DNA of 64,000 nucleotides from Flexithrix dorotheae DSM 6795. GTDB taxonomy: Bacteria > Bacteroidota > Bacteroidia > Cytophagales > Flammeovirgaceae. Positions 24,501-42,665 of the stretch are shown here, in pieces. The translations under genes were made by a program, and so were the position numbers. The DNA lies in contig NZ_KB903448.1 of the NCBI RefSeq assembly GCF_000379765.1, positions 14,027 to 78,026 on the forward strand, in the 5' to 3' direction. The notes below the pieces were generated by a model. That model did not search any database and had not been told where the DNA came from. It saw only the letters and a list, made by a program, of their open reading frames with translations. Numbering within the stretch: the first letter of the stretch is position 1; each line of letters begins with the position of its first letter.

Positions 24501-25103
24501 ATGAAAATATTCAACAAAATTAAATGGGTTGCCGGTATCTTACTGATTTTTGTCATTGTGCTCACCACCAATTTGATAGATAAAGATAATTTTAGCAGGT
24601 TAAGAAATTCGATTGTAACCATTTATGAAGACCGAATAATTGCCTATGATTTAATATTTGAAATTTCTGTTTTAATTCAGGAAAAGGAACTTGCTGTAGC
24701 CATGTCAGATTCCAGTTTTTTCAATAAAAACAATACAAAAACTAACCAAAGTATACAAAGTTTAATAGATCGGTATGAACAAACCAAACTCACAAAAGAG
24801 GAAGGATTTACCTTCGATAGATTGAAAAAGAACTTACAGATCTTAAAAGGCTTAGAAACCGCTTATGTGGAATCCGGCTACAGCAATAAGGAAAATTTAT
24901 TAAAAACCATAGATGACATCGTGCATAATCTGTATGATTTATCCAAAGTACAGCTCAAAGAGGGGAAAAGACAAATGTCCCTCAGTCAAAAAACCATGGA
25001 CTCCATTGATTTATTCACCAGGGTAGAAATAATTTTTCTAGTATTAATGGCTGTGCTGATTCAAATAATGGTTTTGTATAATCCTAATAAGGAAAAGGAA
25101 TAG
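24501..25103 (+). CDS. Hypothetical bitopic membrane protein (four-helix-bundle sensor-like)
   Basis: N-terminal TM, about 150 aa of helical periplasmic region, and a C-terminal TM. Confidence 0.4.
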   Translation: MKIFNKIKWVAGILLIFVIVLTTNLIDKDNFSRLRNSIVTIYEDRIIAYDLIFEISVLIQEKELAVAMSDSSFFNKNNTKTNQSIQSLIDRYEQTKLTKEEGFTFDRLKKNLQILKGLETAYVESGYSNKENLLKTIDDIVHNLYDLSKVQLKEGKRQMSLSQKTMDSIDLFTRVEIIFLVLMAVLIQIMVLYNPNKEKE

Positions 25104-25325
25104 AAGCAAATCGAAATTCAAAAAGCTCTTTATGAAAGATTCTGGCGTAAGTTTGCTACTCGCAATGGTTAGTGTTGTACCTTATTAATTGTTCAAGAGG
25201 AAACTATAGAAGTTTTTAACTTCGGTGAATTTTGGTACTATCCACTTTAAAATCCCAATATAAAACCGGATTGAAAATCCTATGATAGAGGTCCGCCATT
25301 GTAAATGACAAAAAGTAGAAAATGA

Positions 25326-25637
25326 CTATACTCGATCTACAAAATCAATCCTCCCTGAAATAGTGCTATTACTAAACTCTTCTGAAATCATAAATTCAAT
25401 TTTCTTTTCTTCAGTAAAATCCTCCACACTAAATACTACAAGTTGTTCCCTTACAAAACTCAAATTTTGAGGATATGTAATAATATAGACATACTTCTTT
25501 TTTAAATTATATATAAGGCAAACTTCATCATTAATTGGAAGAAGTCTGTTTCTAATAATTTCTATTTCTTCCTCAACTTTGACCTTAACCATGTTCCTAT
25601 ATTTTAAATTAAAAATCCAACAATAGTAGTTCGCCAT
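25326..25637 (-). CDS. Small hypothetical protein immediately downstream of the giant ATPase
   Basis: 103-aa ORF. The likely true start is the internal Met, giving about 88 aa. It is flanked by 16-bp direct repeats. Confidence 0.3.
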   Translation of the reverse strand: MANYYCWIFNLKYRNMVKVKVEEEIEIIRNRLLPINDEVCLIYNLKKKYVYIITYPQNLSFVREQLVVFSVEDFTEEKKIEFMISEEFSNSTISGRIDFVDRV

Positions 25638-25669
25638 TGCAAATGACGAACAGCATTTTTAATATCCAA

Positions 25670-28600
25670 CTACTCCCCACCCCCATTCTTCCTTTGCTTT
25701 GCAGCTTGTTCCAATACATTTTTAATGCCTTCTAAGCCATCGGTGAAGCTGGTCATTTGCATGAGTACCTGGGTCATTTGGTCCTGATTGCCCATGCCTT
25801 TGAAACGCTGGTTTTTCTGGAATTTGGTTTTGATTTCCACCCACCTCTTGGCTTCTTCTTCTCCTAATTTCCCTACCAGTTCTTTAAACTTCAACAGGTT
25901 GGCTTCTGCTCCGGAAGTCAGGGTTTGGGATTCGTTTTCGTAATGACTCAAGAGCAAGGTTTCCAATTCTTTGTCATTCATTACCGAAAATATTTTTTCT
26001 GCCAGTTTATTCATATTCCTGTAAGAACCCTGCAATTTGAAAGCCGGTTCTGTTCTGAAATCATCCTCCTGAGCGGCTGAATCAATATATTGCAAATTCA
26101 CTTTCAGGATGACTTCCTGCACGATGAGCAGCTTTTTCATCACGGAAACATATTCATTCAGCTCTTCAGCAGAAATATTGGATTCGAAGGAAATTCCTTC
26201 CCGATTATCCGTTTTCGCCAACCTGATAATGGTATAAATATCCTTTTTACTTTTACCAGTCAGTTTGCTTAATACGGAATTGGAAGTAAGGGAATTTTCT
26301 ATGTAACTCAATTTGAAAGCTTCATCCGAACCGCCAATAATATCTCCCAGATTATAAGTATCCGCCCTGTTGGCTAACATATCGGGTATCTGGAATTTTT
26401 CCCCACTTTCGGTATAAGGATTACCCGCCATCACCACACAAACCTTTTTTCCCCGCATGTCATAAGTCCTGGTGACACCTTTGTAAACTCCTTCTATTTT
26501 CCTTTGCCCATCACAAAGGGAGATGAATTTCTGTAAAAACTCGGGATTACAGTGCTGAATATCATCCAGGTAAATCATCACATTATCTCCCATTTCAAAA
26601 GCCAGATTCAGTTTTTTCAATTCCTCTCTTGAAGTGGCATTCTTCGCTTCTCCCGGATCGATGGAAGTCACCTGATGCCCAATGGCCGGCCCGTTTATTT
26701 TCATAAAAATCACTCCCAGCCTGTTGGCGATATATTCCATTAAAGTGGTTTTACCATATCCCGGAGGAGAAACCAATAGCAACATTCCCATCAGGTCAGT
26801 TCTTTTCTGGTCACCCACTACCCCAATCTGTTTGGCCAGGTTATCCCCAATTAAAGGCAGATAAACTTCATCAATCAGCCTGTTTCGCACGAATGAAGTC
26901 AGCACTCGTGGCTTAAATTCATCCAGCCTGATCTGGCTTTTAAACTCCGCAGTAAGCGATTTTTTCAAGGCTTCAAATTGCTGAAATTTAGGTACTGCAT
27001 GTTTTTCAAAATCAGTCAGTTTCCTTTCAAATTGATTATAATCCAGCAAATACTCCCCTTTTTCAATCACGGAATGATCTCCGGCAAGTTTGCTCAATTT
27101 CCGGGTAGAAGCCACTTCCACCACCAGTTTCGGCTGGAAACTTCCACTGTACAATAAACCGGCAACTTCATCAATAAACTTCTCAGCTCCAATCACTCCC
27201 AAATCTGTAGCAGCATTTTTCAGATACGCTTTTATCCAGTTTTTAATCAACTGAAATCGCTCTATGGGCGCTTCTTCCAGTTCTTTTAAGGATTGTTCAT
27301 ATGCCTTAACTACCTTCTGTCTTTTGATAAAATCATGGAATCCATGCCAAATATCAGCCGCTTCCTTACTGATGACAAATTCATCGTTATGACAAAGTTC
27401 GAAGAAAAGATATTCGGCTGCTGAGGATATTAGTTCGGTATCAAAAAGCTCAGTTGGGGAAATTTTTGTTTCCATATCCTCCATCAAATCCTCCAGCACT
27501 TCCTGATATTCCCGGCTATCGGGGAACACTTTTAGGATGATACCGATACCTTTTATCTGATGCCCCAAAATATTTTTCTTTTCTGCCGCAGCCAGATGGT
27601 GCCAGTAAAAAGCCGCACAAGCTCTTGAATTGGTATCATATCGCAACAAACCCATTTGCTGATGGAGATCCAGCAAATCCCAAAGGATTAAGGCCGTGTC
27701 CTGATCATGAAGCCCTTTTACATAGCCCTCATGATACCGGGGAGCCATGTATTTCTGTACAAATTCAAGAAATTCTTTTTTGGGCAAATCCTTCAGATTG
27801 GCTTCAAGATCACCTTTGATAAAATCCTTTAAAATTTGCCAGGCTAAATATTCAGCCCGGTAAACGTCCTTATTTTCGGAAATAAGACTTTGATTCCACA
27901 CACTTTTGGTAGCCAAAAATGCTTCATTTTCCACTTTCTCAAAGAAATTTGTTCCTGCCAGATGGTAAAACATTTCCCCGTTTTTGGGTACAATCGACAA
28001 ATCAAATTCCTGCACATTTACAGAAAATTTATGTCTCCCAAATTTGATTACATTTTCGCCATCTACAAAAAGCTCATTTTTATCTTTTAATTGCCTGATG
28101 CTGTCCTCCTTGAGGGTTTTCAGCCGACTCTGAATATCATCAGATTTCACGGCATCGTCCAAATCGGTTAATTGCTTAATGATCTCTCTCACTTTTTCGA
28201 TCATTAAATCAGAAGCGAAATAGCCATTAATTTCATTAAGTGTGGGCAATGTTCCCACTTTGCTTTTCACCCCTTTCAGAATTCGCTCGGCAGCACTCAT
28301 CAGGGCATTGGCCTTTTTATTTCTGGCCTCAATCAGATTGAGCTTTTTGGCTTCAAAAGCATTGTAAATTTCACTTCGCTTTTCGGTAAGCTCTACAATA
28401 AATTCATCGAAATCGGCAAATTTCCCTTCCAGTTCTTCCACTTTCACCATGAGCTTGGTGAGGTATTCTTCACATTTTTCAGGGGTATCACTCACCTCAA
28501 TATAATTCACCACCGCCTGATTCATCAGTTTGAGCTGGGCATTGAATTCGGCTACTGCTTCCGTGCTGAGTAATTCTTTTCTCTTATTTCTGAGTTGCGC

Positions 28601-30682
28601 TTTTACATTATTCAGGTTCGCATAAATCTCGGAAATCCGCTCAATAATTTCTGTAGTTTTGGTAGAATCCTGAATTTTCAGATTACTGACAATATCAATT
28701 AGCAATTCCAAATCACTGCCCAATTGGTCAATGGTTTCTCCAAGCTTTTCCGCCTCATTTACCGTTTCTACCTTGGCAATACCTTCTTTCTGAATCCCTA
28801 CTTGCTGAATATAATGCTCCAGGGAATCATCACGCAACAGAAATTCTACACATTTCTCAGAAAGTTTCTCCGATTTTTCTTTTATCGATAATTCATATTT
28901 TTCTACCAGTTCTTCATCCACATAGCGCAAATCTTTTAGGGAAATCACCTCTCCGCTCGCCATTCGGAAGTCCGCCAGAAACTTCACAAACTCATCAATA
29001 TCCTTAAAAATTTTCCGGTCAACTTCTTTGAGTAAAGCCTCAACTTTTTCCGAAACCCGCTTCACTTCCGCACTGGTATTTTCCTTTACTTTAGTAACCT
29101 TATCAAATTCATCGATGGCCGAGGTTGCTGAATTTTTAATTTCTGCAATAGTTTCATCCAGCTGAAAAGCTTCTGCCTTATTCAGCCAAAAATAACTATC
29201 CAGAATTTCAGCCGATTTTTGGGCCAAGTCAATATACAATCCGGAATAAGAATCATCACGCTGGGTGAGGTTGAATAATTCATTGCAGGCCGCCATCGCT
29301 CCAACAATGTCCTTGTTTCCTACTTTGTACAAATAATTATCAGCCATGGCACTTGGCGCTTCATGATCAGGATGCAAATAAGGTGTTTGCCAAACCTGCA
29401 AAGCATGTTGTTTTTTAGGGTTATGATCGGCTTTAAAATAAACCATTTCCCCATTGAAAAAGAGGGAATAACCACTACAGGTAATCGGTGTTTCTACCTT
29501 TTGGCCAATCACATTATAGGAAAGCAATATATAATCCCCCGATTCCTGGCTGTAGAATACAAATAAAAAATCTTCTCCGTTGGGAGAGGGAATTTTCTGC
29601 TCAAACCGCATGTCGGTTAATTGACTATCAAAAATTTTAAGCTCTCCACTTTGCAAATAATAGCCATTGGAAAAAATAATCCCCTGCTCATCGGGAAGCA
29701 GAATACAGGCATCATTTATGGCATCAATTCTTTTAACTTCCCCCAACTTTTCATTAAAAATCAGGTATCGGAAATCCTTTTCCTGATAGGGTTTGATTTT
29801 CATTAAAATCAGATTACCCAAATCGGCATAAAAGATCTCGGCATCATCCAGGGTTTGCATGGAATTCTCCACAGCTTCTTCATAAATTCCCCTTCCGGAA
29901 TCGGTATTATCCTCCACTTTTACGGTAAGATCACCACCAATGGTTTCTACAAAAACCCTATCCAAAATGGAAATATGGGGATATTTCCCTTCCCTGTGTA
30001 AATCTCTGTGGGTTCTTTTCCACTCAAACTCATGCTGGGCGGGAAATCTTATTTCATGGTCACTTCTGTTGTCAACATATTTCAGGTGCTTGCCTTCAAT
30101 CACAAATTTAAAGGCCTTAATATCCGTTTTGTTTTTCCCAATTCTAAACTTAAAATAAAGATTAGGACCGATAATGATAAACTTCTCAAAAGTGGTTTCT
30201 TTGTAATATTTATAAAGTTCACGAAAGTCTGTTTCAAAACGCTTGTCATGAATTAAATCCAGTCCTTTTTCATGGAAAGAATGATCAGCAGAATGGTATT
30301 CATAGACATTAAAAACATCGGCTAAATTCATCTCCGTTTTCAAACCCATGTGCACGTTGTACCCAAAAATGAACTGGTTGCCAATAGGCACCATGTCCCG
30401 GGCGATACAATTATTGGAAGTGGCAATTCGCTCCGTACCCAGCAGTTTTGTTTCAATTGATCCAAAAACTTTTTTCCGGGATTGATTAAGCTTTTCCAAC
30501 CGGGAATTTAACTCAAGCCCCTGTTTTTCAAGTCTTTTTCTAATGATTTCATAAGTCCCACCTTCCAGCTTCACTTCCTCATTTTGTATATTTTCTGTAT
30601 GATCTTCAGCCATTTTATCTTTAAGCTTTTTTACAGATGATTTGTTATCTATGTTTCTTTGCCTTCTGGCTAAAGTTTGCAA
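25670..30682 (-). CDS. Giant (1670 aa) coiled-coil protein with C-terminal AAA_5 (dynein/MoxR/McrB-type) ATPase module. Often auto-annotated 'DNA repair ATPase', but function is unknown.
   Basis: N-terminal ~450 aa is beta-rich. Residues ~480-1150 are highly charged heptad-like coiled coil. Walker A is LVSPPGYGKTT, Walker B is VMIYLDDIQH, and sensor-1 is VVMAGNP. A helical C-terminal tail of ~300 aa ends in GGGE. Confidence 0.8.
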   Translation of the reverse strand: MQTLARRQRNIDNKSSVKKLKDKMAEDHTENIQNEEVKLEGGTYEIIRKRLEKQGLELNSRLEKLNQSRKKVFGSIETKLLGTERIATSNNCIARDMVPIGNQFIFGYNVHMGLKTEMNLADVFNVYEYHSADHSFHEKGLDLIHDKRFETDFRELYKYYKETTFEKFIIIGPNLYFKFRIGKNKTDIKAFKFVIEGKHLKYVDNRSDHEIRFPAQHEFEWKRTHRDLHREGKYPHISILDRVFVETIGGDLTVKVEDNTDSGRGIYEEAVENSMQTLDDAEIFYADLGNLILMKIKPYQEKDFRYLIFNEKLGEVKRIDAINDACILLPDEQGIIFSNGYYLQSGELKIFDSQLTDMRFEQKIPSPNGEDFLFVFYSQESGDYILLSYNVIGQKVETPITCSGYSLFFNGEMVYFKADHNPKKQHALQVWQTPYLHPDHEAPSAMADNYLYKVGNKDIVGAMAACNELFNLTQRDDSYSGLYIDLAQKSAEILDSYFWLNKAEAFQLDETIAEIKNSATSAIDEFDKVTKVKENTSAEVKRVSEKVEALLKEVDRKIFKDIDEFVKFLADFRMASGEVISLKDLRYVDEELVEKYELSIKEKSEKLSEKCVEFLLRDDSLEHYIQQVGIQKEGIAKVETVNEAEKLGETIDQLGSDLELLIDIVSNLKIQDSTKTTEIIERISEIYANLNNVKAQLRNKRKELLSTEAVAEFNAQLKLMNQAVVNYIEVSDTPEKCEEYLTKLMVKVEELEGKFADFDEFIVELTEKRSEIYNAFEAKKLNLIEARNKKANALMSAAERILKGVKSKVGTLPTLNEINGYFASDLMIEKVREIIKQLTDLDDAVKSDDIQSRLKTLKEDSIRQLKDKNELFVDGENVIKFGRHKFSVNVQEFDLSIVPKNGEMFYHLAGTNFFEKVENEAFLATKSVWNQSLISENKDVYRAEYLAWQILKDFIKGDLEANLKDLPKKEFLEFVQKYMAPRYHEGYVKGLHDQDTALILWDLLDLHQQMGLLRYDTNSRACAAFYWHHLAAAEKKNILGHQIKGIGIILKVFPDSREYQEVLEDLMEDMETKISPTELFDTELISSAAEYLFFELCHNDEFVISKEAADIWHGFHDFIKRQKVVKAYEQSLKELEEAPIERFQLIKNWIKAYLKNAATDLGVIGAEKFIDEVAGLLYSGSFQPKLVVEVASTRKLSKLAGDHSVIEKGEYLLDYNQFERKLTDFEKHAVPKFQQFEALKKSLTAEFKSQIRLDEFKPRVLTSFVRNRLIDEVYLPLIGDNLAKQIGVVGDQKRTDLMGMLLLVSPPGYGKTTLMEYIANRLGVIFMKINGPAIGHQVTSIDPGEAKNATSREELKKLNLAFEMGDNVMIYLDDIQHCNPEFLQKFISLCDGQRKIEGVYKGVTRTYDMRGKKVCVVMAGNPYTESGEKFQIPDMLANRADTYNLGDIIGGSDEAFKLSYIENSLTSNSVLSKLTGKSKKDIYTIIRLAKTDNREGISFESNISAEELNEYVSVMKKLLIVQEVILKVNLQYIDSAAQEDDFRTEPAFKLQGSYRNMNKLAEKIFSVMNDKELETLLLSHYENESQTLTSGAEANLLKFKELVGKLGEEEAKRWVEIKTKFQKNQRFKGMGNQDQMTQVLMQMTSFTDGLEGIKNVLEQAAKQRKNGGGE

Positions 30683-30807
30683 CTTTAGTCTTACAAATAA
30701 AAGCCAGTTTTTAACTGGCTATGCAATTCAGGAAAGTTGCAAACTTTCCTTTATTAAAAGGCTTAAGTAATCGCTTCGCTTGATACTTAAGCCAGGTCGT
30801 AATTAAA

Positions 30808-30893
30808 CCTCCCCCTAACCCCCTTAGCGAGGGGGAATTACATCTTATCTCCCCTTCTGGAAGTGGTTCGGCATTCCGAGGTTGGGGGAAGGT
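30808..30893. repeat. GC-rich ~85-bp element with terminal inverted repeats, copy 1 (cctcccc...ggggaagg)
   Basis: Shares its termini and the internal ggcattccg.gg...gggg.agg block with the copy at 37521-37603. Strongly GC-rich against an AT-rich background. Confidence 0.6.
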
Positions 30894-30904
30894 TATTAAA
30901 ATAC

Positions 30905-33097
30905 CTAAGCCTTAAAAACTCCAAGGGAATCAATGGCTACATTGGCCATTCCCGAGTTCCTTGCCTTTTCGAAAATATCTTCCAAAGTGGATTTTGCTCC
31001 AGGATCATCTGTCATTTTAATTAATTTGCTGAGCAAGGCAGCCACGCTCAGGTTTTTAATATCATTGGTTGTCAAGCCGAATTGTTGGATATAACCTTTA
31101 ATATTTTCAATTATATTACCATCACCATTGGTCAGCAGGTTATTTTTTACATCCTTAAGCACTTCACTGTTATTCACATAACCATCTACAGATTTACCAT
31201 TAGAAATAGATTGCACAATTTTCTCGAAGAACATGGTTTCGCCACCAACGATATCAATTTTCGCAGATTTCAATCCTTCAGCCAATACATCTGCCTGTGC
31301 CTTGGCGATATCTTTTTGTGCTGCAATCTTCGCCAATTCAATTTCCTTATTGGTATTCAAATTCAATCTGAATTCTTCCAATTCTCTGGCCACCCCATCC
31401 ATGGCCTGAACAGCTTCTGCTTCTGCTTTAATTCTATCTGCTTCCACAATTGCTTTTTTCTTCATCACTTCTGCTTCGGCAAATCCTTCTTTCTCTTTTG
31501 CCACTGCTTTAGCTTCCAGTCCTTTCGCTTCTGCTATCGATTTCACCTCAATGATCTCGGCTTCGACTTTACCTTTATCCTGCATCACCTTAGCTTCAGC
31601 AGCTCCCTGCTTCTCAATTGCAGCTGATTTTACTTCAATTCCTTTGGCTTCGGCAATCATTTTCTTTTCAATTAATCTGGCTTCCACTTCGCCTTCCAAT
31701 TCATGTGATTTGGCTTTGGCTTCCATCACCTTAGCTTCAGCAAGTCCATCAGCTGCAGATTCTACTACTTTTGCATCCGCCAGGATTTTCTTCGAATCTG
31801 CTTGTTTCTCGGAAGCCTGCAATTGCGCATTCGCTTCTACCATGACTTGCTTAGCCTTAATTTCCGATGCTTTGTGAGCAGCTTCAGCCGCTTTTAATTG
31901 TTCTACCAATGCCTCTTCTGCATTTTTCTCAGCATTTGTGATGGCTACTTTTTTGTTTCTATCAGCCTCTGCATATGCCTTAGTATCCTTAATTTTCTCC
32001 TCCTCTTCTACTACCGCTTTTTCCACTACAACTCTCTCTCTAATCACATCCTGAATATTTCTTTTCTCCTCTTCTACCGCTTTTTCTTTATCAATTTTGG
32101 CCAATTCTACCACTTTCTCTCTTTCATTAGCTTCCAGTTCTTTTTCTTTCTGGATGCGCTCATCCTCAATAACTTCGGTTCTTTGTTTATTTTTCTCAGC
32201 CACCAACACCTGTCTTTCTTTGTTTTGCTGTGCAATTTCTATTTCTTCATCAGTGGCTATTTTGGCTCTTTCTGCCTTTAGTTTTTCTTCCTGCTCTACC
32301 TGGGCAGCAGCAGCATCTTCTCTGGATCTAATGATGGCAATTTCCCTTTTCTGTTTTTCTTCTGCCTCCGTTTGTTGTCTTTCCAGTTCTAATACTGTTT
32401 CTTTTGCTTCTACATCCTGTTTTTTAATTCTCTTCACCTCATCATTTCTGATTAAGTTTGCCTGAATTTTTTGAGAAGCGGTTAATTCAGTAATTTTCTT
32501 AATACCCTCAGAGTCCATGATATTATCAGGGTTCAGGTTACTTACAGATGTTTGTTCAAGATAATCAATCGCACAATCATCCAAAACATAACCATTCAGA
32601 TCCGTACCAATAATATTCAGAATTTCTTTTTTGAACTGCTCTCTTGAGGTATAAAGCTCTACAAAATCAAACCGTTTACCCACTGTTTTTAATGCTTCTG
32701 AAAATTTGGCTTCAAATAAATTCACCAGTAATTCTGTATCTGATGCTCTGTCTGTACCAATGGCTTGTGCTACTTTTTTCACATCTTCTTCATTGTTATT
32801 TACCCTTACAAAAAAGACCACTTTGATATCTGCCCTTAAATTATCCTTGCAAATTAATCCTTCTTTGCCAGCCCTTTGGATTTCCACACTCTTTAGGGAA
32901 ATATCCATCATTTCCATCCTATGAAATACTGGTATAACTGTAATGCCATTGAAAGAGATTTTTATGCCTCCAGCTCCTGTTTTTACAAGGGCTTTTCCCT
33001 GTGGGACCTTCTTATAACAGGTTACGAAAAAAATTACTATTCCAAATACTATCACTGCCACTACAATGATACTGCTGAATAATGCTCCTGATATCAT
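30905..33097 (-). CDS. Flotillin (SPFH/band-7 domain with EA-repeat coiled coil; YqiK/FloT-like)
   Basis: N-terminal TM, SPFH domain (KVPQGKALVKTGAGG...), then long A/E/K-rich repeats (AEAKVMEAKAK...) typical of flotillins. Confidence 0.85.
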   Translation of the reverse strand: MISGALFSSIIVVAVIVFGIVIFFVTCYKKVPQGKALVKTGAGGIKISFNGITVIPVFHRMEMMDISLKSVEIQRAGKEGLICKDNLRADIKVVFFVRVNNNEEDVKKVAQAIGTDRASDTELLVNLFEAKFSEALKTVGKRFDFVELYTSREQFKKEILNIIGTDLNGYVLDDCAIDYLEQTSVSNLNPDNIMDSEGIKKITELTASQKIQANLIRNDEVKRIKKQDVEAKETVLELERQQTEAEEKQKREIAIIRSREDAAAAQVEQEEKLKAERAKIATDEEIEIAQQNKERQVLVAEKNKQRTEVIEDERIQKEKELEANEREKVVELAKIDKEKAVEEEKRNIQDVIRERVVVEKAVVEEEEKIKDTKAYAEADRNKKVAITNAEKNAEEALVEQLKAAEAAHKASEIKAKQVMVEANAQLQASEKQADSKKILADAKVVESAADGLAEAKVMEAKAKSHELEGEVEARLIEKKMIAEAKGIEVKSAAIEKQGAAEAKVMQDKGKVEAEIIEVKSIAEAKGLEAKAVAKEKEGFAEAEVMKKKAIVEADRIKAEAEAVQAMDGVARELEEFRLNLNTNKEIELAKIAAQKDIAKAQADVLAEGLKSAKIDIVGGETMFFEKIVQSISNGKSVDGYVNNSEVLKDVKNNLLTNGDGNIIENIKGYIQQFGLTTNDIKNLSVAALLSKLIKMTDDPGAKSTLEDIFEKARNSGMANVAIDSLGVFKA

Positions 33098-33156
33098 ATT
33101 TTATTTTATTAAGAATTTATATTTGATTAGATTTTACACAAACACCTGAAATTGAA

Positions 33157-33801
33157 CTAATTATAAGGCTCAACCATATAGAAATTTTTATCACTGTTAT
33201 ATTCCAGAATCAATCCATTTGATCCCTTATCGAGAATGTTATCACCATTTGCTTTAATATTAATTAGCTGTGTGGATTGTTTAGTTACCACCTCTGCCTG
33301 TCCTAAACTATTAGCATCTGCCGAAATAATCACTTTACAGATTTTTCCGACCACTCTAGTATCTTCCTCTTTTTCAGCCAAATGAAAAAGTTTCATAATT
33401 GGATAAGTCGCAAACTTTGTTAGAAATAAGCAACCAATAAAAATGGGGATAAATAAACCCAAAGCAATTAACCATGAGGAATTTCCCAAATAGTGGTTGG
33501 CCAATATGGAGGAAACCCACATAAAAAGGGATAGAAAACTAAAAATAATCATAAAGGGGACTTCTCCGAAATTGAAGAAATGTAGCACCTGGCCAATCCC
33601 AAAACTACCTGTATCCATATCAGCATCCACCTCAGCATCAATATCTACATCAACGTCAATATCTACATCGATATCCACATCAAATGAACTAATATCAAAT
33701 ACTCCAATGATTACCGTAAACCAATACAGCATGGTAAGCACCATCAGAAAGGTATAGAATATATTTACCGGTAATAAGGCAGCCTGAAGAAATTCTATCA
33801 T
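33157..33801 (-). CDS. NfeD/YqiJ-like membrane protein (flotillin partner)
   Basis: Multi-TM N-terminus and a C-terminal OB-fold-like segment (VVGKICKVIIS...AEVV) as in NfeD. Contains an unusual (DV/DI)n acidic stretch. Sits immediately upstream of flotillin, as in yqiJ-yqiK and yuaF-floT. Confidence 0.65.
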   Translation of the reverse strand: MIEFLQAALLPVNIFYTFLMVLTMLYWFTVIIGVFDISSFDVDIDVDIDVDVDIDAEVDADMDTGSFGIGQVLHFFNFGEVPFMIIFSFLSLFMWVSSILANHYLGNSSWLIALGLFIPIFIGCLFLTKFATYPIMKLFHLAEKEEDTRVVGKICKVIISADANSLGQAEVVTKQSTQLINIKANGDNILDKGSNGLILEYNSDKNFYMVEPYN

Positions 33802-34090
33802 GACTTGTAGTGTAAAGTGGTTTAAAATTAATTTTCAGTTGGTCTATGATTTTCTCCTTTTTATAACCATAGAAGGTTTTAACCATGGTAAATTTGACCA
33901 AACACAATTGGTAAATTCATGAAATTATATGGTTAAACAAAAACTTAATCTGGTCTATCTGAAATTTTAAAAGTAGGTCCGTAATTTCGATAATTTATTA
34001 CAATTCTCCTTTAAAAATTTTTTCTTTTTTTTCCAGTCAAATTTCTTTTTCATAAAAATCACCTATTCCAAACGAAACCCCAATAACGGA

Positions 34091-34333
34091 TTATATAAGC
34101 GATAGCAGAAAAATTATTGCAGTAACTACATAAACACTATTGATTATCAGATCTACCTGTTTCCTTGCTGTAATTATGGCATTTAATTTTTGTTTTGGCG
34201 AAAAACTAATTCTCCTGTTGTTCCCTACTTTATTTTTTTTTAAAATCATTTTATTCCTTTTCTCTGCCAAATCGGCAAATGGCGGGTGGAGGATATCTTT
34301 GTAGTTAGTCACTTTTACCTGGGCAAAACTCAT
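34091..34333 (-). CDS. Possible small membrane protein (80 aa)
   Basis: ORF with a basic N-terminus and a C-terminal TM (VYVVTAIIFLLSLI), in an otherwise ~770-bp intergenic region. Could be spurious. Confidence 0.25.
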   Translation of the reverse strand: MSFAQVKVTNYKDILHPPFADLAEKRNKMILKKNKVGNNRRISFSPKQKLNAIITARKQVDLIINSVYVVTAIIFLLSLI

Positions 34334-34574
34334 AGCTGGTCGATATTTATATCCTGAAAGATTACAAAAGATTTTTTTTAATTAGTTGAATAATCCTGTT
34401 TTTTATTACACCGATTCGTATAATAATTCCATAAATTAGTGATAACCAACTGATTTACAGACGAAATTAATTCCAACACTTCAGATTTAATCTCAAAAAA
34501 GTACAATAAATCCTTAATCTTTCGTAATTTGGAAACACTTTTTCCAAATAACAATTAAGCCTGACTAGTATCCA

Positions 34575-36956
34575 ATGAAATTCTCAATATCTTATATGAC
34601 CAAGCGGATAAGGCATAAGCTAATTCTTTATTTCTTATTAATAGGGACTGTTCCACTCTCCATTGCCCTTTGGATGGAATACAAAGTGGTAGTCAATAGT
34701 GTGGAAGAAGATGCTTACAACCACTTGAAAAGTGTTAGAGAAATTAAAAAAACAGCGATTGAAGATTATTTTTTCCAACTGAAGGAAGAAGTGAATTTTT
34801 TAGGTAAAAGCCGGATGATTACCGATGCCATGGCCAACTTCAATATGCACTTTCACAATATCAATGAAAATGTAATCAATAAAGAATTTACCAAAGGTGT
34901 AAGGCATTATTATAATGATATTTATCTCACACAATTATCCGAGTTTAAAAAAGAGGAAAAGGAAAAATTGTTTTACGATATTTATCCTACCAACCATAAA
35001 ACCCTGTTTTTTCAATATAACTATATCTCTAACTGGGGAGTAATTAAGGAGCAATTTCCTTACAAAAGTGTACATGATTATTTCCACCCGGATATTTCAC
35101 GCTCTATAGAATACTTTGGTTTTGATGACCTTTATCTCATTGATCCTCACACAGGTTACATTGTGTACTCAGCAGCAAAAAAAGTGGATTATGCAACCAG
35201 TTTGACTAAAGGACCATTTGAAAAATCGAGTTTGGGAAAGATTTTCAAAATTGTGTTGAATAATCCGGCTGGTCAGAGCATTCAGTATTACGATTTTGAG
35301 CAATATCTACCTTCATTTAATGCTCCGGTAGCTTTTATGGGTACTCAGATCATAAAAGACGGAAAGTTAATTGGAGTGCTTGTAGTGCAAATCCCTATCG
35401 ACAAAATCAATGGGGTAATGGCGGGTGATGGCAACTGGCAACAAGCAGGAATGGGGGATTCAGGAGAAAGTTATCTGGTGGGTAGTGACATGAAAATGCG
35501 TTCTGATTCCCGATTTATTATTGAAAACCGGGCCGCCATATTTTCAGAAGATGCGGACGAAGTTGATTTACAGAAACAGGTCTCCAGCATGACCAGTCCT
35601 CAGCATACCTCAGTATTGTATCAGCAAGTCAATTCAGAGGCCGTAAAAGAAGCTCTTGCAGGAAATACCGGAGTAATTTCTACTACAAATTACCTTGGTA
35701 AAAAAGTTCTCAGTTGCTATACCCCAATTCAAACAGAAGACCTTCATTGGGCCTTGATTTCCGAAATGGAAGAAGGGGAAGTATTCGATCTGGTTTCAGG
35801 ACTAAAATACAGGTTATTGGGACTCATTCTGATTATTTCCATAATTGTAACCGCCTGTGCTTTGGTAATCGCCTACCGCATTGCCTCTCCAATTTTGCAA
35901 TTGGCCAAAGGAAGTAAAAAACTAGCCACTGGAGATTTCAATATTCAACTTGAAGTGAAATCGGATGATGAAATTGGCTACCTGACCAAAATGTTTAATA
36001 TGATGGCCATTTCTCTGGAAGAGAAAAAGAATGATATTTTAAGGAAAAATGCTGCTTTAGAACAGCAAAAAGAGGAAATTGAAGCGCAAAGAGATGATAT
36101 TGAAATCAGGACAAACCAACTGGCTAAAGCTTATAAGGACATCAGGGGAAGTATTAATTATGCCCAAAGAATTCAAAAAGCAAAATTGCCACAATTTGAA
36201 AATTTACAAAAACTGATTCCCGATTCCTTTATTTTCTTTAAACCAAGAGATTTGGTAAGTGGAGATTTTTACTGGTTTTCAGAAATAGGCAACAAAATTA
36301 TCATTGCTGCTGTGGATTGTACGGGGCATGGTGTTCCCGGAGCTTTTATGAGTCTTATTGGTTCTGGTTTGCTGGATGAAATTGTGAACCAGAAAAAGAT
36401 TCTGAAACCCGAATTAATTCTCAAAAAAATGCATGAAGGGGTTCAGCAGGTTTTAAGGCAAAGGGAAACGGAAAACAGAGATGGCATGGATATGTCCTTG
36501 TGTGTGATTGACAGAAATCTACATAAAATGGAATTTGCAGGTGCTAAAAACCCACTGGTTTACATACAAAATGGGGAACTTCACCATATAAAAGGCGACA
36601 AACATCCAATTGGAGGCTTGCAAAAAGAAGACGAAAGAGTTTTTGGAAAACATGAAATTGACCTGGAACAGGAAACTACTTTCTACATTTTTTCTGATGG
36701 ATATCAGGATCAGTTTGGTGGTAGCCACAACAGGAAATTCATGATCAAAAACCTCAAAGAATTATTTCTTAAAATTCATCATTCCCCCATCAAAACCCAG
36801 CATCTTATTTTGGAAGAGAAAATTAACTCCTGGATGGGAGATGACCACAAACAACTAGATGATATTTTAATTATTGGATTCAGGATTGATCCTGAAAAAT
36901 TCTTCCCCACCAAAATCAACCTTAAGGATTACGTAAAATCTAATTTGATGCACTAA
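34575..36956 (+). CDS. Sensor PP2C-type serine phosphatase (Cache-like periplasmic domain, HAMP, SpoIIE)
   Basis: N-terminal TM, ~370-aa extracytoplasmic region, a second TM, HAMP (ASPILQLAKGSKKLATGDFN), a coiled coil, and a SpoIIE/PP2C domain (DFYWF...AAVDCTGHGVPGAFMS...SDGYQDQ). Confidence 0.8.
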   Translation: MKFSISYMTKRIRHKLILYFLLIGTVPLSIALWMEYKVVVNSVEEDAYNHLKSVREIKKTAIEDYFFQLKEEVNFLGKSRMITDAMANFNMHFHNINENVINKEFTKGVRHYYNDIYLTQLSEFKKEEKEKLFYDIYPTNHKTLFFQYNYISNWGVIKEQFPYKSVHDYFHPDISRSIEYFGFDDLYLIDPHTGYIVYSAAKKVDYATSLTKGPFEKSSLGKIFKIVLNNPAGQSIQYYDFEQYLPSFNAPVAFMGTQIIKDGKLIGVLVVQIPIDKINGVMAGDGNWQQAGMGDSGESYLVGSDMKMRSDSRFIIENRAAIFSEDADEVDLQKQVSSMTSPQHTSVLYQQVNSEAVKEALAGNTGVISTTNYLGKKVLSCYTPIQTEDLHWALISEMEEGEVFDLVSGLKYRLLGLILIISIIVTACALVIAYRIASPILQLAKGSKKLATGDFNIQLEVKSDDEIGYLTKMFNMMAISLEEKKNDILRKNAALEQQKEEIEAQRDDIEIRTNQLAKAYKDIRGSINYAQRIQKAKLPQFENLQKLIPDSFIFFKPRDLVSGDFYWFSEIGNKIIIAAVDCTGHGVPGAFMSLIGSGLLDEIVNQKKILKPELILKKMHEGVQQVLRQRETENRDGMDMSLCVIDRNLHKMEFAGAKNPLVYIQNGELHHIKGDKHPIGGLQKEDERVFGKHEIDLEQETTFYIFSDGYQDQFGGSHNRKFMIKNLKELFLKIHHSPIKTQHLILEEKINSWMGDDHKQLDDILIIGFRIDPEKFFPTKINLKDYVKSNLMH

Positions 36957-41420: not shown

Positions 41421-42665
41421 TTACCTTTTATTAATTGCAAAGTAGTTTACTACCCATGTAAAAAGAAAGAACCCTATTACAAATGCCATCAAAAATATAC
41501 CATTAATTTCATCATTTAGGGTGAGCCCCAATAGCCCTACAATTCCCAGCGCTGCAGTATAAAGAGAAACAATTACCCTACCTTTAGATTTTGGGACGGT
41601 TGAAAAGGTACCACCTATGGGAATCAGCATAAAAATAGCCCATCCTCCAAATAAGATTAGCCTGGGCAAATCAAATATAAAAGAAGACACCACTGTAAGT
41701 ATTCCGCCCACTAAAAATAATCCTACCAGATTAGAGCCAAAGATTTCATCTTTGGAAAGTGCATGTTTACCCAATGGATGCAAGCGCAAAAATAAATCTG
41801 ATACCGGTGTGGCAATCCAGGTAGAAAACACAAAAAGGATGTAAACCGCAATCAGGGGATAAATTAATGGTGCAAACTCGGGATTACTTTCGGCAAAATT
41901 CCTCAGGAAACGAAATACCACATAAAGCCCGATAATCATAAACCACTTGCCATTTTTACTCAATTTGGACATCCAGAGGAAATAATTCAGGATAATACGG
42001 TACAAATAGTTTTTCCCTTTAATCGATTCTTTTAGCCCTTCCTTAGCATACTGGTTATTGGGGTCCAGCCTTAATGCTTCTTTAAAGATCTCCATCGCCT
42101 CATTGTATTCCCCCAATTCGATCTTTGCCCATCCTTTATTGGCATGGGAATAAGAATTTTCAGGCTCTTTATTCAAAGCATAATCCATCACCTGAGCAGC
42201 TTCCTTTTTCCTGTTCAGTTTTACTAAAGCCATGGCTCTCATATTGATGCAGCCTACATGCTCTGCCTCTACTTCCAGGCCTTTTTCCGCAAAGCTTAAG
42301 GATTTTTCCCAATTGCCTTTCTGGTAAGCAATGTTTGATTTGATCAGGAAATAATTTGCATCATAAGGATCAAGGCCAATTGCCTCATCTATAGCTTCTT
42401 CCGCTTCTTTCAGTTTTCCCCAGTGAAGATAGACTTTGGATAAAATATAAAAAAATGAAGCATTTCCCGGATCTATGGAAAGTGCCTTTTTGATCATCTT
42501 CAAAGCCTGCTCATGCTCGTTACTTTCCGACTGACATTCAGCCAGAAAAGCATAGGCCATAGCATCGTTTGGGTTTTCTGCAATGGCTTTTTTTAATTCG
42601 GTTTCTGCTTCTTTAAATCTGTCTTGCTGCACCAGGATTTGTGCCCTGAATAAAAACCCACTCAT
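41421..42665 (-). CDS. TPR-repeat protein with C-terminal polytopic membrane domain
   Basis: About 230 aa of TPR repeats followed by about 5 TM helices. The start codon abuts the stop of the upstream AAA gene. Confidence 0.6.
   Translation of the reverse strand: MSGFLFRAQILVQQDRFKEAETELKKAIAENPNDAMAYAFLAECQSESNEHEQALKMIKKALSIDPGNASFFYILSKVYLHWGKLKEAEEAIDEAIGLDPYDANYFLIKSNIAYQKGNWEKSLSFAEKGLEVEAEHVGCINMRAMALVKLNRKKEAAQVMDYALNKEPENSYSHANKGWAKIELGEYNEAMEIFKEALRLDPNNQYAKEGLKESIKGKNYLYRIILNYFLWMSKLSKNGKWFMIIGLYVVFRFLRNFAESNPEFAPLIYPLIAVYILFVFSTWIATPVSDLFLRLHPLGKHALSKDEIFGSNLVGLFLVGGILTVVSSFIFDLPRLILFGGWAIFMLIPIGGTFSTVPKSKGRVIVSLYTAALGIVGLLGLTLNDEINGIFLMAFVIGFFLFTWVVNYFAINKR

Follow-up and report, generated by a model that had tools for sequence, protein, structure and literature searches.

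A YqiJ-flotillin-AAA+ ATPase locus of Flexithrix dorotheae, a probable abbreviated form of a PspA-linked membrane-maintenance module

Organisation of the locus

We studied a window of 64,000 nt (the whole stretch of DNA that was analysed) from Flexithrix dorotheae DSM 6795 (assembly GCF_000379765.1, contig NZ_KB903448.1, positions 14,027-78,026), the minus strand of which encodes, one after another, a YqiJ/NfeD-type membrane protein, a YqiK-type flotillin (SPFH), a giant soluble AAA+ ATPase and a small trailing open reading frame (ORF). An initial annotation, read from the letters of the sequence, had placed four minus-strand ORFs here, at 33801-33157, 33097-30905, 30682-25670 and 25637-25326, all of which are present (Table 1), and had seen in them a flotillin/NfeD-like pair accompanied by an unusual ATPase.

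The yqiJ-yqiK genes of the E. coli K-12 genome were used as reference for the homology of both membrane proteins. The 730-aa protein aligns with YqiK over 445 aa by BLASTP (E 8e-47, 29% identity), and the profile of its family aligns with YqiK over 397 columns by hhalign (100% probability, E 1.2e-38). Only this comparison settles that the protein is a flotillin, because searches of Pfam, NCBIfam and PDB sequences with it gave no match; Pfam Band_7 matches 1 of 46 members of the family, the window protein not being the one, and the family profile finds in PDB a weak match to the QmcA structure 8z5g (E 0.0033) that includes the coiled region. The protein consists of a single N-terminal hydrophobic membrane anchor (residues 1-32), the SPFH domain, a long coiled region rich in glutamate, alanine and lysine (together 52% of the composition of residues 216-610) and a conserved C-terminal domain. 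A homologue that is 65% identical (P0122) comes from a eukaryotic transcriptome, as a TRINITY contig of EukProt, and is most likely due to bacterial contamination of that data set.

The family alignment of the 214-aa protein (A2) matches E. coli YqiJ in hhalign with 96% probability (E 4.4e-9), and Pfam YqiJ_N gives a weak score below its cut-off (E 1.5e-3). Hydropathy indicates about three hydrophobic segments in this protein, which NCBI names 'OB-fold-containing protein'; its C-terminal part is a putative OB-like domain, the profile matching the YuaF OB domain 2k14 weakly (E 0.28, 57 residues). These alignments establish genuine homology of the two proteins to YqiJ and YqiK of E. coli, and the flotillin/NfeD-type pair is therefore real. 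Between hydrophobic segments 1 and 2 of the YqiJ-like protein (residues ~38-62) lies an acidic alternating repeat, DVDIDVDIDVDVDIDAEVDADMD, at 33616-33690; a DxDxDxD pattern recurs in the consensus of the family, and the repeat may form a cation-binding loop.

Table 1. Features of the locus, with their coordinates in the window
Feature	Coordinates	Protein residues	Strand	Basis
YqiJ/NfeD-type membrane protein, 214 aa	33157..33801		minus	ORF call and homology
YqiK-type flotillin (SPFH), 730 aa	30905..33097		minus	ORF call and homology
Structured flotillin-ATPase spacer, 294 nt	30611..30904		minus	RNA folding, terminator and repeat scans
Giant soluble AAA+ ATPase, 1646 aa (NCBI 'DNA repair ATPase')	25670..30610		minus	Pfam, homologues
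ATPase: N-terminal helix		17-49	minus	AlphaFold2
ATPase: beta-propeller, core of DUF3686	29387..30448	55-408	minus	AlphaFold2 (predicted local distance difference test score, pLDDT, ~85-93), Foldseek
ATPase: spectrin-repeat-like helical rod including DUF7902	28070..29335	426-847	minus	AlphaFold2
ATPase: small beta unit (854-892) and helical middle domain (918-1155)	27146..28051	854-1155	minus	AlphaFold2
ATPase: AAA+ alpha/beta core	26336..26800	1271-1425	minus	Motifs, conservation, AlphaFold2, Foldseek
ATPase: helical lid and C-terminal helical extension	25673..26335	1426-1646	minus	AlphaFold2 DSSP
Trailing small ORF, 103 aa as read	25326..25637		minus	ORF call; NCBI annotates 88 aa

Conservation of the gene order and the PspA-extended operon

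Relatives of the locus were scanned with one genome per species, and the best-scoring 80 loci of 529 relatives were kept, a sample biased towards close relatives; 63 of these, in which 3 kb or more of sequence precedes the ATPase gene, were taken as informative. The YqiJ, flotillin and ATPase genes follow each other on one strand in 60 of the 63 (95%), and the informative loci span many Bacteroidota orders as well as Planctomycetota, Verrucomicrobiota and Polyangia. A protein search of a plasmid collection yielded full-length relatives of the ATPase at 34-42% identity, from Pseudomonas fluorescens pQBR103, Streptomyces and Deinococcus plasmids, Proteus mirabilis and Vibrio campbellii, and the flotillin gene lies directly upstream of the ATPase gene in all five distant genomes inspected. 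The same order and strand are thereby seen in at least eight phyla, down to 34% ATPase identity, so that the conserved linkage of the three large genes, which the initial annotation had raised as a possibility, is supported. The pairwise-identity matrices of ATPase and flotillin correlate with r = 0.91, a value reached by 0 of 999 Mantel permutations, which shows co-inheritance of the two genes, although shared species phylogeny contributes to the signal.

Genes matching CesT_Tir_1 (E 4e-54) and PspA_IM30 (E 4e-41) stand directly upstream of the three-gene unit in 26 of 56 loci, and ORF clustering found a divergent HTH_3+Peptidase_S24 gene in 28 of the 56. Some loci also have a PLD-family gene, which in Vibrio is placed after the ATPase gene. 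On pQBR103 of P. fluorescens SBW25 (L082, record 84437-97641), the unit ends a ten-gene same-strand block that encodes YjfI, PspA, a rhomboid protease, DUF2491, DUF350, DUF1190, a glutathionylspermidine synthase, the YqiJ-like protein, the SPFH protein and the giant ATPase.

An operon of this kind was listed by Ravi et al. (mSystems 2024, PMC11237479; bioRxiv 2020.09.24.301986), in the order divergent cHTH+protease, CesT/Tir, PspA, YqiJ/YuaF, Band-7+coiled coil+flotillin and beta-propeller+coiled coil+AAA+, and the window order of YqiJ-type, flotillin and propeller+rod+AAA+ genes matches its core. The same authors mention the abbreviated three-gene form in one sentence, give a Dokdonia example with the same order in a supplementary table, and report neither structural nor statistical nor experimental work on the ATPase (PMC11237479). 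The suggestion that this would be an undescribed flotillin-associated system must accordingly be given up, and the membrane-linked reading is one that Ravi et al. reached independently (PMC11237479); what we add is confirmation, numbers and a domain map for an operon class already published from comparative genomics. Our literature search found nothing relevant beyond that paper, and a 2026 survey of P. aeruginosa SPFH proteins does not mention the ATPase. In the pQBR103 block, which lies on a well-studied plasmid, two PspA operon classes that Ravi et al. had distinguished are combined, the unit being linked to a YjfI-PspA-polyamine operon.

As no homologue of PspA, CesT or HTH-S24 is encoded in the 64-kb window, the Flexithrix locus fits the abbreviated operon form, and we consider, with a probability of roughly 0.6, that it is the abbreviated three-gene form of a membrane-maintenance module tied to the phage-shock protein PspA. 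A membrane-associated role, as the initial annotation had suggested, is the best reading of the ATPase system, its partners being the YqiJ and flotillin membrane proteins and its wider link being to PspA. Several observations weigh against this interpretation. The lack of pspA in the window is itself one of them, as are the bias of the 80 loci and the phylogenetic share of the Mantel correlation. Three informative loci (L003, L020 and L053) have the ATPase gene with 10 kb of upstream DNA and no flotillin or YqiJ gene nearby; their partners may be encoded elsewhere or may have been lost. Between the flotillin and ATPase genes the spacing is loose (median 663 nt from match to match), with a gap of at least 400 bp in 35 of 60 loci and often with unrelated small genes inserted, and in the window a terminator-like hairpin with a T-run (30720-30702) lies between the two genes; co-transcription is therefore not assured. 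Finally, E. coli yqiJK works without the giant ATPase, and our literature search found no experimental work on any module member. L003 is among the closest relatives (63% identity), yet has no flotillin gene nearby.

The terminator-like hairpin, the long structured spacer and the three loci without flotillin are also what could be put forward for an adjacency without functional meaning, in which the genes would be independent neighbours. This is scarcely credible when 95% of the informative loci, and eight phyla down to 34% ATPase identity, retain the gene order on the same strand; synteny effectively refutes it. We hold with high confidence that the three genes function as one module, the YqiJ-flotillin gap of which is short (59 nt in the window; median 76 nt in 60 loci).

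Domain architecture of the giant ATPase

The giant gene had been read from TTG 30682, as a protein of 1670 aa behind a spacer of 222 bp. That ORF is present, but the true start is almost certainly ATG 30610, because the closest relative, a sister metagenome-assembled genome (MAG; L001), keeps both this ATG and the sequence just before it and because homologues align from residue ~1-15; the protein then has 1646 aa and the spacer, as a consequence, 294 nt. The protein is 100% identical to an NCBI entry from F. dorotheae. Pfam recognises DUF3686 (E 6e-186, residues 33-474) and DUF7902 (E 6e-26, residues 595-679), and hydropathy predicts no transmembrane or hydrophobic segment. More than 4500 homologues were found, at 55-65% identity across phyla. 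Among 1.84 billion representatives DUF3686 accounts for only 736 clusters at 50% identity, and practically all complete proteins that carry it measure ~1600-1900 aa; the family is compact and slowly evolving, with a single architecture.

Two AlphaFold2 models were built from a 57-sequence alignment, one of residues 1-1200 (pLDDT 84) and one of residues 851-1646 (pLDDT 85). A beta-rich N-terminal part of ~450 aa had been expected, and residues 55-408 are indeed modelled with ~27 strands, consistent with seven blades; the PDB matches of this domain in Foldseek are the propellers of Elp1, Sec12 and prolyl/acylaminoacyl peptidases and the clathrin terminal domain. The ~600 aa of heptad-rich coiled coil that had been proposed to follow are helical as predicted, but the region amounts to ~420 aa of separate helices (at least 14, of 15-51 residues each), which resemble spectrin-type three-helix bundles more than a single continuous coil; one long SMC-like coiled coil is ruled out by the AlphaFold2 secondary structure. 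A beta-propeller followed by a helical rod is a coat-like architecture, as in clathrin heavy chain and nucleoporins, to which there are weak matches. At the other end of the protein, the helices of lid and tail fall at residues 1429-1642 (579-792 of the second model, by DSSP). Mean identity to the window protein is 87% in the AAA+ core, 38-63% in the other folded parts (least, at 0.38, in the helical middle domain 918-1155) and 32% in the C-terminal tail.

The Walker A, Walker B and AGNP sensor motifs that the initial annotation had noted are all present, as GYGKTT (1284-1289), MIYLDD (1345-1350) and, for sensor-1, MAGNPY (1394-1399). Across 56 homologues K1287, D1349-D1350, the sensor-1 residue N1397 and R1415 are invariant, and G1284, T1288-T1289, G1396, P1398 and Y1399 are invariant or nearly so; R1415 is a candidate arginine finger. 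Three quarters (75%) of the columns of the AAA+ core are at least 90% conserved. The loop between beta2 and alpha2, NGPAIGHQVTS (1306-1316; NGPAIGHxVTS in the family), is nearly invariant, and an aromatic-hydrophobic-Gly pore-loop 1 motif cannot be read in it.

The assignment of the module to the AAA_5 type stands in part. Foldseek places NorQ and CbbQ, of the MoxR class of remodelling ATPases, first among the matches of the AAA+ core, and RuvB, Lon, spastin, MCM and dynein come next, all with modest E-values (1e-6 to 1e-4); ClpX and ClpA are also among the closest folds, and the AAA_5 profile scores above its cut-off (24.6 bits against 22, E 2.7e-5). But PF00004 scores higher (37 bits against a cut-off of 21.2, E 5.5e-9); the PDB sequence matches to VCP/Cdc48 lie chiefly in the P-loop region, at ~1243-1354. 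A pre-sensor-1 beta-hairpin (1371-1384, with strands 1371-1376 and 1379-1384) is modelled directly ahead of the sensor-1 strand (1390-1396), which places the module outside the classical AAA clade. The helix-2 beta-hairpin insert is not predicted, residues 1307-1324 being a strand-free loop in the model, and no gene for a VWA-domain partner is found among the conserved neighbours of the ATPase gene; for these two reasons 'AAA_5/MoxR-type' describes a fair resemblance and not a clean membership.

The public name of the protein would make it a DNA-repair ATPase of the SMC/RecN/SbcC kind that merely adjoins flotillin genes, a reading that draws on the Pfam description of DUF3686, on NCBI product names, on weak RuvB_N/RuvB matches and on the S24 (LexA-like) regulator of some loci. 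The architecture speaks strongly the other way: SMC/RecN features are absent, and the protein has one AAA+ module near its C-terminus, with Walker A and B ~60 residues apart, in place of the split heads of the ABC type. Pfam finds no DNA-binding or nuclease domain in it, RuvB reaches 26 bits against a family cut-off of 282, the invariant partners are membrane proteins, and our literature search found no supporting paper. We thus regard a repair function as very improbable. The initial annotation had rightly doubted both that this was a standard repair ATPase and that the label meant more than automatic naming; 'DNA repair ATPase' is an inherited label, a systematic mislabelling in public databases that hides the ATPase from membrane biologists.

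Proposed function

Within a membrane-maintenance module the parts could work together as follows. YqiJ, with three predicted transmembrane segments and a putative OB domain, and the YqiK-type flotillin would build a scaffold at the inner membrane, on its cytoplasmic side. The soluble ATPase would form an AAA+ ring, and its beta-propeller and spectrin-like rod would dock on this scaffold and also on PspA polymers where the genome encodes PspA, whether within the operon or outside it. Hydrolysis of ATP may then assemble, disassemble or turn over membrane-bound polymers under envelope stress, by analogy with the action of Vps4 on ESCRT-III, and in the full operons an S24-type repressor would control expression. 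The homologies, the domain layout, the intact catalytic residues, the kept synteny with co-inheritance, and PspA, a CesT/Tir chaperone and an HTH-S24 repressor as frequent additions are shown by the data above; that the proteins touch, that a ring forms, and which substrate and which stress signal take part are the elements of this scheme that we infer.

That the ATPase acts in such a remodelling mechanism on flotillin or PspA assemblies is a tentative proposal, to which we give somewhat less than even odds. Rather more doubtful is the stricter version, in which the ATPase would be a dedicated ATP-driven assembly and disassembly motor of flotillin scaffolds and, where present, of PspA/ESCRT-III polymers. 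Flotillins and PspA are central to bacterial membrane organisation and repair, and we know of no energy-consuming partner of flotillin scaffolds. The ATPase is a strong candidate for this missing flotillin motor, because it is tied to flotillin genes in at least eight phyla and has an AAA+ core that is ~87% identical among the compared homologues, which stem from several phyla; if this is true, it would be the first known case of an AAA+ protein that remodels an SPFH scaffold.

The same parts might instead serve membrane-protein quality control, the scaffold corralling client proteins and the ATPase extracting or unfolding damaged ones, much as in HflK/C-FtsH, an established precedent of an SPFH cage with an AAA+ machine (references in PMC10936438). 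The closest AAA+ folds include Lon, ClpX, ClpA and MoxR chaperones, the nearly invariant loop 1306-1316 could contact substrate, and S. aureus FloA-NfeD is reported, as cited in PMC13086221, to stabilise unfolded proteins. This loop has, however, no aromatic-hydrophobic-Gly motif, the ATPase carries no protease domain, the conserved block includes no protease gene, and the recurrent partner is the polymer-forming PspA and not a protease. Quality control appears to us unlikely.

A role in phage or conflict defence, also suggested in the initial annotation, would make the locus an abortive-infection-like system that senses infection at the membrane. Such a role could be argued from the copies on large plasmids (pQBR103 and those of Streptomyces, Deinococcus and Hymenobacter), from the CI/LexA-like HTH-S24 regulator, PLD-family gene or TerB/TerD neighbours of some loci, from the patchy spread across phyla and from a junction that often holds inserted genes such as DUF559. 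Yet PADLOC 2.0 gave no significant match for the module genes and their neighbours, the matches within the module being at P-loop level only (IetA, E 4.5e-4 over 30 residues) and those of the neighbours being at the level of TPR repeats only, in the protein at 41421-42665. The window context is one of ordinary chromosomal genes, the ATPase evolves very slowly (51-65% identity across phyla and only the 736 clusters given above), unlike typical defence genes, and the conserved core includes no nuclease or toxin effector. The defence role is unsupported by these results and, in our judgement, quite improbable.

Spacer, trailing ORF and neighbouring genes

RNA folding of the flotillin-ATPase spacer is much more stable than that of shuffled controls (z = -6.2). 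The GC-rich palindromic element that had been noticed in it is real, a self-complementary stretch of ~83 nt at 30808-30890 in single copy in the window, though it lies within ~100 nt that are absent from L001, where the rest of the spacer is conserved, and is on this account an insertion; it could be a repeat of the Flexithrix genome resembling repetitive extragenic palindromes (REP) or miniature inverted-repeat transposable elements (MITE). The spacer also contains a hairpin with a 10-bp stem at 30760-30793. The terminator-like hairpin is bracketed by inverted 15-mers, AAAGTTTGCAACTTT, at 30733-30747 and 30672-30686, which are predicted to pair and are both kept in L001; they could act as a terminator/antiterminator-like switch or as a protein-binding palindrome. 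A scan of 25000-34600 with Rfam found no family for the spacer and only chance-level matches to eukaryotic RNAs, and a sigma-70 promoter scan gave 32 sites against 28 expected, which is background level, Bacteroidota using another promoter type.

The trailing small ORF, which had been counted into the unit, is an orphan: it forms a singleton cluster, has no homologue in the 80 related loci and was rejected as a fourth component of the module. Two copies of a 19-nt direct repeat, GTCATTTRCAATGGCGRAC, flank it (25291-25309 and 25629-25647, minus strand; 0.03 expected by chance), and the upstream copy forms a terminator-like hairpin directly after the stop codon of the ATPase gene; repeats and ORF may represent an inserted small cassette, or the two repeats a pair of regulatory or terminator sequences. 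An 80-aa ORF upstream of yqiJ (34091-34333), conserved solely in the sister MAG, was likewise rejected as a module member.

The neighbours in the window are a dehydrogenase, a LacI regulator, a sigma factor and a histidine kinase. On the plus strand at 34575-36956, pointing away from the yqiJ-like gene, is a gene encoding a sensor phosphatase with dCache, HAMP and SpoIIE/PP2C domains, which is SiaA-like by an NCBIfam match (E 3e-73) that stays under the family cut-off; homologues of it lie near the ATPase gene in L001, L020 and L022, probably through lineage synteny. Among the relatives, a DUF559 (endonuclease-like) gene occurs at L024:5880-6308 and in Hymenobacter (L055, L058, L059, L066, L077, L078 and L080). 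In Hymenobacter it sits between the flotillin and ATPase genes, a junction that therefore tolerates insertions, and in Adhaeribacter it sits upstream of yqiJ. A TerB-domain gene follows the ATPase gene directly on its 3' side in Marinilabiliales-type loci (L026:10773-11183, Pfam E 5.8e-7; L037, L042, L044 and L063), and a TerD gene is found near the Streptomyces copy (L083).

Comparison with known systems

The full operon of Ravi et al., with its divergent cHTH+protease gene, CesT/Tir, PspA and sometimes PLD, is represented in 26-28 of the related loci, whereas the window has the three-gene core only. The first two genes of this core are homologous to yqiJ-yqiK of E. coli and stand in the same order; there, however, no giant ATPase follows downstream, and YqiK has 553 aa against the 730 aa of the window flotillin, which has a longer region rich in glutamate and alanine and a longer C-terminus.

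HflK/C-FtsH likewise combines, at the inner membrane, an SPFH scaffold with an AAA+ partner. There the partner, FtsH, is a classical AAA protease anchored in the membrane, and the cage lies on the periplasmic side; the window ATPase, by contrast, is soluble, lacks a protease domain and belongs by its model to the pre-sensor-1-hairpin group, and the bulk of the flotillin is predicted to be cytoplasmic.

PspA and Vipp1 belong to the ESCRT-III superfamily. About half of the loci tie the AAA+ ATPase genetically to PspA, a polymer that remodels membranes, which recalls Vps4 and ESCRT-III and suggests a role in polymer recycling. Vps4 is a small classical AAA protein with an MIT domain, unlike the window ATPase with its 1646 aa, propeller, rod and non-classical core. 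More generally, the window ATPase exceeds the PF00004 cut-off as members of the classical AAA clade (Cdc48, Vps4, FtsH) do, yet its pre-sensor-1 hairpin is predicted and the pore-loop motif is absent. The MoxR class (NorQ, CbbQ, RavA; AAA_5) provides the best structural matches, and the sensor-1 'NP', the pre-sensor-1 hairpin and the AAA_5 score fit it; by contrast with that class, the window ATPase has no VWA partner or predicted helix-2 insert, and its N-terminal propeller and rod are unique to the DUF3686 family. SMC, RecN and SbcC have ABC heads at both termini joined by an antiparallel coiled coil, where the window ATPase has a beta-propeller at its N-terminus.

A functional coupling of an SPFH protein to PspA is also seen for YdjI and PspA in B. 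subtilis, in which the SPFH protein is required for bringing PspA to the membrane (PMC8581546); ydjI belongs to the operon ydjFGHI, which has neither an AAA+ ATPase nor a YqiJ-type partner.

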